Virus genome (UHGV): UHGV-1754446
From: a virus
DNA: 20,188 nt
Reading direction: 5' to 3' (one strand)
In this document: in pieces, positions 8,509 through 10,403 of the stretch
Layout of the letters: every line of letters begins with the position of its first letter
How positions within the stretch are numbered: the stretch's first letter is position 1
Position numbers and translations under genes: made by a program
The notes under the pieces: model-generated
What the model was told of the DNA's origin: nothing
Seen by the model: the letters and a program-made list of their open reading frames with translations, nothing else
Databases searched by the model: none

Positions 8509-8537
8509 ACGACAGTTGCAAATTCCGCAACCGTCGT
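8509..8537 (+). terminator. Hairpin after the endolysin gene (11-bp stem with one A.C mismatch, 7-nt loop)
   Basis: ACGACAGTTGC-aaattcc-GCAACCGTCGT lies 27 nt after the amidase stop; the U-tract is weak, so this is a candidate terminator only. Confidence 0.35.
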
Positions 8538-8606
8538 AAAGGCGTTCTTTGACATTGTGGGTTGCCGTTAAAAATACAATATTTTCGAAAAATTATATAC
8601 AATTAT

Positions 8607-8628
8607 TTTGGGAAATTATATATCTTTG
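8607..8628 (+). promoter_or_regulatory. Candidate Bacteroidota-type promoter (-7 box TAtcTTTG at 8621-8628) upstream of the accessory island
   Basis: Exact match to the Bacteroides -7 consensus TAnnTTTG in an AT-rich intergenic region about 40 nt before the first possible start codon. A TTTG lies at 8607-8610, but the spacing is shorter than the canonical -33 distance. This motif occurs by chance every few kb, so the evidence is weak. Confidence 0.3.
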
Positions 8629-8640
8629 CACAATATAAGA

Positions 8641-8662
8641 AGCCCTTACGGCAATAAGGGCT
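8641..8662 (+). promoter_or_regulatory. Perfect 8-bp hairpin (AGCCCTTA-cggcaa-TAAGGGCT) immediately upstream of ORF 8666..9295
   Basis: Read directly from the sequence; lies between the candidate promoter and the start codon, so it is a 5'-UTR structure or operator candidate. Confidence 0.3.
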
Positions 8663-8665
8663 GAA

Positions 8666-9295
8666 ATGACAGACGGTGTGCCCGTCTTAAATTTAAATTA
8701 TATGGCAAAGATAAATAATAATTTTGAGAAACGAAAACGCATCACGAAAAATGAAGCGTTGGAACTGCTAAAAGATTGTTATGAGGACATCTTCAAGGCG
8801 TATTACGCAGGTCTGGAAAATTACAATGAAGAAATAAATATGACCATACCTGAAGCAAGGACAAGGCTTGTAGGTCCTTTGCTTAACGCAAAAATAACAG
8901 AGAGTTTCATTCTCACATTTCCCGAGAACTGGAACAAAGGCAAATACGGAAGGATAATATTCAGATGGAACGGTGTGCTCATGCTCATCAAGAAATTGAA
9001 CAAGAATGACAAGCCGTCTTACATTCCGACAATACTTTCAGATTCGATTGTCAACCAATACCAATTACCGCTTTTCCAAGGCGATGAAGGCAAGGAAGAG
9101 CCGATATTGATTTTCGGATATACAAAGGACGGTTTCGGGCAGCTCGTAAACCCGAGAATTGTCTTGTATGACGATGGGGTTCAATGGACTGCCTATATGG
9201 AAGACGGTGTAAATATGCCGACTGCCAATACAGACACGCAGGAGATTATTGTCCGCCTGAAAAAGAAAGAGACAGGAGAAAAGAAGGCAGAATAA
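8666..9295 (+). CDS. Hypothetical protein (197-209 aa), first gene of the accessory island; candidate effector
   Basis: ORF with possible starts at 8666 (MTDGVPV...) or 8702 (MAKINNNFEK...); no motif I recognise; lower GC than the flanking lysis genes; bracketed by the 15-bp inverted repeat. Confidence 0.75.
   Translation: MTDGVPVLNLNYMAKINNNFEKRKRITKNEALELLKDCYEDIFKAYYAGLENYNEEINMTIPEARTRLVGPLLNAKITESFILTFPENWNKGKYGRIIFRWNGVLMLIKKLNKNDKPSYIPTILSDSIVNQYQLPLFQGDEGKEEPILIFGYTKDGFGQLVNPRIVLYDDGVQWTAYMEDGVNMPTANTDTQEIIVRLKKKETGEKKAE
8669..8683. repeat. Left copy of a 15-bp perfect inverted repeat (ACAGACGGTGTGCCC)
   Basis: Exact reverse complement of 9301..9315; overlaps codons 2-6 of the ORF that starts at 8666. 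Confidence 0.9.
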
Positions 9296-9300
9296 CAGCA

Positions 9301-9315
9301 GGGCACACCGTCTGT
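9301..9315. repeat. Right copy of the 15-bp perfect inverted repeat (GGGCACACCGTCTGT)
   Basis: Exact reverse complement of 8669..8683; lies 6 nt after the stop of ORF 8666..9295 and 33 nt before the XRE-ImmA start. Confidence 0.9.
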
Positions 9316-9347
9316 TTTCAACAAACGACCTATAAAAGCAACGTCTT

Positions 9348-10403
9348 ATGAAATGTGAGCAGCTAACATTCGCAAGGGAATACAGGGGATTTACGCAAAC
9401 CGCACTCGCGGCAAAAGTCAAAGGGCTATCGCAATCCAACCTGTCAAAATATGAAAAGGGGTTTGGCGGGCTGTCAGACAACATGCTTAGTTTGATTATG
9501 TCCACGCTTGATTTTCCGATGAAATTCCTTGACATGAATATTGTGAACAAGGTTGACAGCAAGCATTACAGGAAAAAGGCAACCATAACCGTAAAGACAC
9601 GCAACGAGATAGACAGGACAATATCCCTGATTGCGTATTGTTTTGATTGGCTTAGTGAATTTGTCGAGATACCTGACTATTCATTTGGATACTACGACAT
9701 GGACAACGGCATAAGCCCGGAGGAACTTGCCGGGCACATAAGGAACAAATACAGGCTCGGCATGTCGCCTATATCCGATATTTGCAATTTCCTTGAGCGC
9801 AATGGGGTATTCATTTACATGTGGGACAGTCCTAACGACGAGTTTGACGGGGTATCCCTGATAACTGACGCAGGCAATCATCTTATCATTGTGAACAGGA
9901 ACAGAAGCAACGACAGGGTAAGGTTTACGCTTGCACATGAGCTGGGACACATACTGATGCACGAGTGCCCAAGTTTCCCGGTATTCAGCATTAGAGACAA
10001 GGAGAAAGAGGCGAACGCTTTTGCATCAGAGTTCCTTCTCCCCTCCCAGGCTGTCAGAAACGCCTTGCACAATGTCAGGCTCGGACAGTTCCCTGAGCTG
10101 AAACGGTATTGGCTTGTTTCCATGGCATCACTTTTGGAAAAGGCAAAAAACATAAACGCCATTGCAAGTGAGAAGTACAAGTCTATGAGAATGGAGTTCA
10201 GCAGACGCCATTGGAATAAGAAAGAACCTTACGAAGTGCCTATTGACAGCCCTACCGTCTTTGAGCAGGCATATAGGCTGGTATCGGACACATTGGGGTA
10301 TTCAATCAGCATGATTTCGGAAAGCACAGGCTTGCCCGAGGATGTCTTGATAAAGATATTCGGCAAATCTGCGAGGATAATATCATTAAAGCCACTAATA
10401 TAA
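9348..10403 (+). CDS. HTH_XRE DNA-binding domain fused to ImmA/IrrE-family Zn-metallopeptidase (COG2856-like)
   Basis: N-terminus LTFAREYRGFTQTALAAKVKGLSQSNLSKYEKG is a typical XRE helix-turn-helix. The central part has the HEXXH Zn site (AHELGHILMHE) followed by EKEANAFASEFLLP, the third-ligand/E..AN.FA motif characteristic of ImmA/IrrE peptidases. Confidence 0.9.
   Translation: MKCEQLTFAREYRGFTQTALAAKVKGLSQSNLSKYEKGFGGLSDNMLSLIMSTLDFPMKFLDMNIVNKVDSKHYRKKATITVKTRNEIDRTISLIAYCFDWLSEFVEIPDYSFGYYDMDNGISPEELAGHIRNKYRLGMSPISDICNFLERNGVFIYMWDSPNDEFDGVSLITDAGNHLIIVNRNRSNDRVRFTLAHELGHILMHECPSFPVFSIRDKEKEANAFASEFLLPSQAVRNALHNVRLGQFPELKRYWLVSMASLLEKAKNINAIASEKYKSMRMEFSRRHWNKKEPYEVPIDSPTVFEQAYRLVSDTLGYSISMISESTGLPEDVLIKIFGKSARIISLKPLI

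Follow-up and report, generated by a model that had tools for sequence, protein, structure and literature searches.

A stretch of 20,188 nucleotides (nt) from the virus genome UHGV-1754446, referred to below as the window, carries an inverted pair of 15-nt sequences that encloses a single gene of a module resembling the toxin-antitoxin system RosmerTA. The left copy (ACAGACGGTGTGCCC) and the right copy (GGGCACACCGTCTGT), which we call the left and right arms, are exact reverse complements with no Watson–Crick extension on either flank. Both copies, their coordinates, and their exact complementarity were found as claimed in an earlier note made from the letters of this DNA (the original prediction). 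The note had also reported an 8-bp hairpin to the left of the pair, which we recovered as AGCCCTTA-CGGCAA-TAAGGGCT and name stem-loop 1 (SL1), as well as a palindrome (TTAAATTTAA, 8687–8696), which is present in the window and is not conserved in other lineages. Likewise, the repeat does frame one gene, as the arms bracket a single cistron precisely. Feature positions are collected in Table 1.

Where our analysis departs from the original prediction is the reading frame. The open reading frame (ORF) had been started at 8666, which placed the left arm inside codons 2–6. However, the 124 homologues of the encoded protein are mostly 195 to 199 amino acids (aa) long, and the ATG at 8666 is replaced by ATT in close relatives (96%-identical loci); the start was therefore assigned to the ATG at 8702. 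With this start both arms are noncoding, the left one lying in the 5′ leader and the right one after the stop codon (9293–9295). The gap between the stop codon and the right arm, given before as 6 nt, is 5 nt.

The enclosed gene encodes a 197-aa protein with no match in Pfam, PHROGs, PADLOC, NCBIfam, or the sequences of the PDB. Its AlphaFold2 model (predicted local distance difference test score of 84) has an alpha/beta fold without a significant structural match, and the protein contains no hydrophobic stretch. The C-terminal tail of the model (residues 172–197) is disordered and rich in Lys and Glu. The invariant residues of the family are mostly basic or aromatic (Arg11, Arg55, Lys81, Tyr82, Arg84, Arg88, Lys97, Arg152, and Trp162), and none of them is acidic. 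Homologues occur in Prevotella/Segatella, Bacteroidaceae, Alloprevotella, and Seonamhaeicola.

The 351-aa protein encoded downstream is matched over its full length by 14 RmrA models of PADLOC (E values from 5e-59 to 2e-31). It belongs to PHROG 2439 and matches the NCBIfam model of the spr1629 family repressor/antitoxin below the curated cut-off. In the homologous loci, rmrA always lies directly downstream of the 197-aa gene and in the same orientation. RosmerTA is defined by a Zn-peptidase antitoxin together with a toxin of diverse, unknown type (10.1101/2022.05.11.491447; PMC10440598), and the toxin gene comes first in 58% of the systems of the ImmA/Rosmer antitoxin node (PMC10440598). As in RosmerTA, an antitoxin-type protein with an N-terminal helix-turn-helix (HTH) domain and an ImmA/M78 Zn-peptidase domain is preceded here by a gene of unknown function, and the module is phage-borne with its own promoter. 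It differs in that the upstream protein has no match to known RmrT models, an absence that the definition of RosmerTA tolerates because its toxins are diverse (PMC10440598). We describe the two genes as a RosmerTA-like module of Prevotella/Bacteroides-type prophages, for which a role in defence is suggested by analogy.

After the promoter, the leader runs through SL1, the left arm together with a second local hairpin (SL2; 8669–8687 in all), and an AU-rich stretch to the ATG. The promoter was called on the published Bacteroides promoter consensus. Its −7 box fits TAnnTTTG, the block ATTATATA...ATTATATATCTTTGC hardly varies across all homologous loci, and segment 8590–8628 is accordingly described as the predicted Bacteroidota-type promoter of the module. 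Between the two genes, whose spacer measures 52 nt in the window, neither a −7 box nor a local plus-strand terminator or hairpin was found, and both genes would therefore be co-transcribed.

Table 1. Positions of the genes, arms, and predicted RNA elements of the locus in the window
Feature	Position	Strand	Remarks
Promoter	8590–8628	+	−7 box TATCTTTG at 8621–8628; direct repeats AAATTATATA at 8590–8599 and 8613–8622; predicted
Predicted cis-antisense small RNA	8633–8699	−	About 65 nt, ends approximate; deduced from box and terminator
SL1	8641–8662		Leader 5′ end; GC-rich hairpin of 8 bp; covaries across lineages
Left arm	8669–8683	+	5′ leader, 19–33 nt upstream of the true start codon
SL2	8671–8687	+	Local hairpin AGACGG-TGTGC-CCGTCT; 5′ strand and loop common to the left arm
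Bracketed gene	8702–9295	+	197-aa protein; toxin (RmrT) position of the RosmerTA-like pair; start predicted
Candidate minus-strand −7 box	8706–8713	−	TATCTTTG; inside codons 2–4 of the ORF; reads CAAAGATA at 8706–8713
Right arm	9301–9315	+	5 nt after the stop codon and separated from the rmrA start by 32 nt
Short U-rich stretch	9315–9319	+	TGTTTTC; directly after the helix; longer in most relatives
rmrA-like gene	9348–10403	+	351 aa; HTH_3 and Peptidase_M78 (ImmA/IrrE) in Pfam; antitoxin-type partner

Covariation of the arms and the strand that pairs

A chance expectation of about 0.2 pairs in 20 kb had been given for such a repeat, and Markov shuffles yielded much the same value (0.16–0.24 perfect 15-nt inverted pairs), with only 0.013 to 0.023 expected at a spacing of at most 1 kb. 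The window holds four perfect inverted pairs of at least 15 nt, a number reached by none of 1000 shuffles. The other pairs are 15 to 16 nt long and 2 to 16 kb apart (3035–3050/18949–18964, 16310–16324/18289–18303, and 16750–16764/20033–20047). With four such pairs in the window, the pair count alone is weaker evidence than it appears. The decisive support for the 15-nt pair is its conservation.

A search of homologous loci for the 15-mer, as the original prediction had proposed, found both arms exact in the 96%-identical loci. In loci of about 90% identity the right arm carries one C-to-T change opposite a G, and in distant loci the arm sequence is unrelated to that of the window, yet the two arms of each locus remain a complementary pair. 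Altogether, about 26 lineages carry some 18 versions of the arms, and in every one of them the left and right arms stay complementary at equivalent positions; GCCAACGATATAC/GTATATCGTTGGC, AAATTCGGTGATGTA/TACATCACCGAATTT, and TGATAAGGAGGGTTGC/GCAACCCTCTTTATCA are examples of such unrelated pairs. The geometry is constant among the helix-bearing lineages, in which the left arm ends 16 to 23 nt before the ATG and the right arm begins 4 to 18 nt after the stop codon. Cognate helices measure 10 to 17 bp with a mean of 13.6 bp, compared with 8.4 bp for noncognate combinations, and most of them were matched by no more than 3 of 200 shuffles of their own spacer. When 21 lineages were aligned with MAFFT without reference to structure, the core helix showed 85.7% pairing, and both partners had changed in 10 of its 11 pairs. 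SL1 and the long-range helix together gave a covariation score of 0.478, whereas sliding the partners by one to three columns lowered it to 0.10–0.16, and 0 of 500 shuffles reached the observed score. Rfam 15 returned a single match, a small nucleolar RNA at chance level (E = 0.57), and DNA similarity to the deposited phage collection was confined to one irrelevant match of 159 bp.

The mismatches within the arms indicate which molecule pairs. Both kinds of transition mismatch, G·U and A·C, were allowed to extend the helix. Among the internal mismatches of genuine arm pairs we counted about 12 independent G·U pairs on the sense strand and no convincing A·C; three A·C cells trace to a spurious AT-rich match in one locus (L102) and to terminal over-extension in another (L052). 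This bias toward G·U on the sense strand argues for RNA pairing rather than for a protein-binding or recombination site in DNA, and it is the pattern that a helix in the sense RNA would leave. At the level of sequence comparison, the arms demonstrate that a sense-RNA helix around the toxin-position cistron is under selection.

The same data bear on a reading in which the arms act as DNA, either as the ends of an inserted cassette or as recombination sites that invert the gene, which the original prediction had listed first. A perfect 15-bp inverted pair that frames one gene is what such a reading would have, and invertible segments are common in Bacteroidales. However, the segment was inverted in none of about 98 assembled contigs, a count that low-frequency inversion within one culture would escape; these contigs comprised ORF-anchored loci, a junction-agnostic metagenome scan, and RmrA-anchored loci unbiased for ORF orientation. 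The flanks CTGAAATG and TTTCAACA do not form a target-site duplication, the end points of the deletions in two loci described below (L098 and L101) lie away from the arms, and a ratio of 12:0 for G·U over A·C is unexpected for a DNA site. Moreover, the neighbours are the endolysin gene, rmrA, and a DUF6808 gene, with no invertase, recombinase, or transposase adjacent. The invertons of Bacteroidales likewise have short inverted repeats around a segment of a few hundred base pairs, but here a single orientation was found, no invertase is adjacent, and the substitution pattern is of the RNA type. A DNA-level role is thus largely refuted, and we regard it as scarcely credible.

A further suggestion had been that the arms are two operators bound by the HTH domain of the adjacent XRE/M78 protein, here RmrA. 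Antitoxins commonly autoregulate, the left arm of the window is palindromic (AGACGG-N5-CCGTCT), and the right arm is a copy of it with two mismatches. Against this, the recognition helix is invariant in 16 lineages (Gly26, Leu27, Ser28, Gln29, Asn31, Leu32, and Ser33), while the arms comprise about 18 unrelated sequences. The right arm retains the spacer and one half-site, not both half-sites, and the left-arm palindrome is missing in L080, L094, and L097. It does not recur at other promoters in the window, and the strand-asymmetric G·U bias would not be expected of an operator. The direct repeats AAATTATATA in the promoter are nearly invariant in all lineages, as is the recognition helix of RmrA, and are better candidates for an autoregulatory operator than the arms. 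Operator function of the arms is therefore largely refuted and very improbable.

Predicted folding and the proposed action of the helix

The second alternative of the original prediction, long-range pairing within the mRNA, agrees with the covariation and with the sense-strand G·U bias, and it also emerged when the transcript was folded, a check that the note had proposed. In the folding of 8636–9347, the long-range helix is part of both the minimum free energy (MFE) structure and the centroid, with pair probabilities of 0.93 to 0.98. In the MFE structure, flanking and coaxial pairs extend it to about 19 to 21 pairs. Since the 5′ strand and loop of SL2 belong to the left arm, SL2 and the long-range helix are mutually exclusive. 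In folds of truncated transcripts, SL2 persists up to position 9300 and has given way to the long-range helix at 9320; when the right arm is blocked, 18 kcal/mol are lost.

We consider it likely that the arms are the two strands of a conserved intramolecular helix in the sense RNA of a RosmerTA-like operon, forming a fold-back like that of the tac and fbi elements of hok, which would control the toxin mRNA. Transcription would begin from the Bacteroidota promoter, and the leader is predicted to fold first into SL1 and SL2. As soon as transcription has run beyond the toxin-position stop codon and through 9301–9315, the new strand would displace the 3′ strand of SL2 and pair with 8669–8683, an order of events that follows from the folding predictions. 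The whole cistron would then become a loop of about 617 nt, and one junction would bring together the start and stop of the toxin gene and the leader of rmrA, with a U-rich stretch after the helix. By analogy with known fold-backs, such a structure may tune or lock expression of the toxin cistron relative to the antitoxin through translation, decay, or 3′-end formation. In addition, it may mask the leader from a candidate cis-antisense small RNA (sRNA) that bears the 15-nt sequence of the right arm.

Two direct 9-nt copies of part of the left arm, ACGGTGTGC and AGACGGTGT, lie inside the ORF at 8970–8978 and 9202–9210. They were considered as stepping-stones of folding or as alternative partners of the right arm and rejected, as they are not conserved in other lineages; the copies are probably incidental.

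Several observations weigh against a regulatory fold-back. We infer the transcription start, the co-transcription of the two genes, and the regulatory effect alike. The start codon is not covered by the helix, and the toxin start has no Shine–Dalgarno (SD) sequence. Bacteroidota lack SD-dependent initiation. For these reasons SD sequestration in the manner of hok is inapplicable, and the sequestration of the start region that the original prediction had attached to mRNA pairing fails, as the left arm ends 19 nt upstream of the true ATG. Predicted accessibility of the start regions changes modestly between the two states (0.59 versus 0.66 for the toxin gene, and 0.58 versus 0.39 for rmrA). SL2 covaries in many lineages and is absent in L080, L094, and L097, so that a metastable-hairpin step is not universal and the long-range helix is the primary conserved element. 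The U-rich stretch of the window itself is weak, with three T in 8 nt. Furthermore, the 197-aa protein is a candidate toxin by its position, its toxicity being putative, and the RmrT models of PADLOC do not match it.

The distribution of the helix belongs to the same side of the balance. A leader/post-stop helix occurs in homologous modules with a spacer of at least 42 nt, while four closer family members, with spacers of 34 to 73 nt, lack it. It is also missing from all distant modules, in which the genes abut or overlap. These helix-less members and distant modules imply that the helix is not required for the protein pair to function. Loci L106–L150, viral loci gathered by an RmrA-anchored search with the aid of an alignment (a scan of viral contigs with the single RmrA protein gave only the same phages), encode distant RmrA proteins of 26 to 37% identity, each preceded by a gene for about 200 to 225 aa. 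By a broader profile these upstream genes are remote members of the 197-aa family, and the spacing of the two genes ranges from −26 to +7 nt. A general role of the helix in RosmerTA was ruled out by the distant modules, and by sequence the helix is a clade-specific addition to a wider protein pair.

Among relatives the genes on the far sides of the module differ, with an amidase or lysozyme gene upstream, an integrase gene or others downstream, and sometimes nonphage genes. In the window, an Amidase_3 endolysin gene lies upstream, and rmrA and a DUF6808 gene lie downstream. Between the endolysin gene and the module promoter, a minus-strand terminator-like hairpin (8509–8537) has 13 pairs followed by CAGTTATTTC and would stop leftward transcription entering the lysis genes. 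Elsewhere in the window, tail-fibre-like genes contain two distinct families of direct repeats (2303–2335/2806–2838 and 4378–4424/4881–4927; 76–77% identity) with a common spacing of 503 nt, possibly a sign that a repeated domain of about 168 aa serves in two proteins. In two contigs of Segatella copri (L048 and L049), the module and its helix lie between glycosyltransferase/sulfatase genes and an ATPase gene; the helix of L049 carries a U·G variant, and the 1.5-kb flanks of both contigs have no obvious phage genes. The module may occur outside prophages as well. In L098 and L101 (2400–2485 in each), the promoter is joined almost directly to rmrA, which leaves an orphan antitoxin under the module promoter. 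Along with the toxin-position gene in its entirety, these deletions remove the leader, including SL1, and the two arms.

Candidate RNA partners and processing routes

An antisense transcript may act on the same leader. In 23 of 25 helix-bearing lineages a minus-strand −7 box lies within the first 35 nt or so of the coding sequence, whereas none of seven helix-less family members has one, and the box is kept although the amino acids and frame offsets differ. On the minus strand, SL1 resembles a terminator, a hairpin followed by a T-rich tail with at least four T directly after it in 16 of 18 lineages, at a place where no minus-strand gene ends. Mismatches in SL1 read C·A on the sense strand, which makes them G·U pairs in an antisense transcript. 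The predicted sRNA would begin with an AU-rich 5′ tail, continue into a stem-loop that is complementary to SL2, and end in the reverse of SL1 as its terminator; it would contain the 15-nt sequence of the right arm, and its architecture is predicted alike in 18 lineages. The conserved box and terminator suggest a cis-antisense sRNA.

This sRNA (from about 8699 to 8633 on the minus strand) could repress or destabilise the toxin mRNA by pairing with its leader. The right arm would then occupy the sRNA target in cis, so that completed transcripts escape, or binding of the sRNA would free the right arm, a three-RNA logic like that of hok/sok. The distribution of the box, the terminator shape, the antisense G·U pairs, and the shared architecture speak for such a mask. 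On the other hand, A-rich N-terminal codons alone can create CAAAnnTA, two other gene starts in the window (16141 and 19587) also have similar boxes nearby, no clear −33 element was found, and L103 and L120 retain SL1 without the box. Masking of the leader against an sRNA is in our view a tentative possibility.

The U-rich stretch behind the right arm raises a different role, in which the helix and U-tract form a long-range intrinsic terminator or attenuator that ends a share of the transcripts just past the toxin gene. The proportion of toxin-only to bicistronic mRNA would thereby be set, and the toxin mRNA would have its true 5′ and 3′ ends paired with each other. Termination of this kind is a sub-mechanism of the RNA helix and does not contradict it. 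Of 26 lineages, 21 have at least four T in the 8 nt that follow the right arm, compared with 19% of control windows further down the spacer, and in L052, L086, L094, and L095, where A's are scarce in the sequence 5′ of the left arm, the tract is not explicable as an extension of the helix. The lack of a local terminator and of a −7 box between the genes also fits, and without a local plus-strand hairpin only a noncanonical, long-range terminator would be possible there. Like intrinsic terminators and attenuators, the element has a GC-rich helix directly before a U-rich stretch and an upstream hairpin, SL2, that competes for one strand. It differs from them in the distance between its stem strands, about 620 nt, and in a U-tract that some lineages have only weakly or not at all; the window is among these, and L019 and L022 have an A-run in place of the T-run. 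We are not aware of any described terminator whose stem closes over about 620 nt. In addition, the left arm must be free and near while the U-tract is transcribed, and if transcripts stopped ahead of the antitoxin gene, rmrA would have no evident promoter. We therefore judge termination by the helix, or its action as a 3′-end clamp, to be unlikely.

The helix might instead serve as a processing stem for RNase III, with double-stranded cleavage that separates or excises the toxin cistron from rmrA and leaves halves of different stability. The processing stems of rRNA offer a parallel, the helix brackets one cistron precisely, and its MFE form reaches the length given above. Pairing of the 5′ and 3′ untranslated regions (UTRs) of the icaR mRNA likewise creates an RNase III substrate (PMC3868564). 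However, the conserved core of 10 to 17 bp is short for RNase III, and no conserved sequence features of a cleavage site were identified, which makes a processing stem distinctly improbable.

These elements could also act in concert, as a hok/sok-like RNA layer on a protein-antitoxin system. A cis-antisense sRNA, an arm that mimics it, and a helix that spans about 620 nt and also serves as an intrinsic terminator would together give a stable, locked toxin-only mRNA, released when phage infection perturbs transcription or RNA decay. We offer this combination as a speculative scheme and hold it to be doubtful. No RNA-level control of RosmerTA or of RmrT/RmrA was described in the literature searched.

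Relation to known fold-back mRNAs

The favoured reading, a fold-back that encloses the toxin-position cistron, has its closest counterpart in hok mRNA, in which the tac and fbi elements form a 5′–3′ stem and the same 5′ element pairs just downstream in a transient hairpin (PMC9841398). As in hok/sok, and in AapA/IsoA of Helicobacter pylori (PMC9841398), the 5′ leader pairs with a segment 3′ of the toxin ORF. The enclosed gene is likewise a toxin gene, here by position, and a cis-antisense RNA may overlie the leader. However, the antitoxin here is a protein, RmrA, in place of or besides the candidate antisense RNA, and the product is a soluble protein of 197 aa rather than a membrane peptide of about 50 aa. 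Moreover, the 3′ arm lies in the intercistronic spacer upstream of the antitoxin gene, and SD sequestration is not possible. The element is hok-like in architecture and not a member of the hok family, because it neither encodes a small hydrophobic peptide nor sequesters an SD sequence.

Comparing the locus with the icaR mRNA of Staphylococcus aureus (PMC3868564), the leader pairs with the region after the stop codon in both, and the icaR mRNA encodes a protein of about 190 aa. In icaR the pairing acts post-transcriptionally, as the 3′ UTR binds the SD region, blocks initiation, and creates an RNase III site (PMC3868564). Here, in contrast, the arm ends well short of the ATG in a phylum without SD-dependent initiation. 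The icaR mRNA is also monocistronic with a long 3′ UTR, whereas the 3′ arm here follows the stop codon closely within a short spacer. Long-range 5′–3′ pairing of an mRNA is already known, and what would be new here is the setting, a protein antitoxin in an SD-less phylum.

Operons of toxin-antitoxin and abortive-infection systems in which the toxin comes first must restrain the toxin, and the means by which RosmerTA does so has not been described. A covarying fold-back around the toxin cistron, found in Prevotella/Segatella, Bacteroides, Alloprevotella, and a flavobacterium, is a concrete, mutable RNA element that may serve this purpose. It would extend the pairing of mRNA ends, a hallmark of type I systems that is otherwise represented by a single S. 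aureus gene, to a defence system with a protein antitoxin, in a phylum whose initiation without SD pairing makes the textbook sequestration mechanism impossible. The locus also defines an uncharacterised family of toxin candidates of about 200 aa that is common in human-gut prophages. Should the full RNA layer prove true, control of the module would be a type I/type II hybrid, and its helix would be the first terminator stem of the long-range kind.

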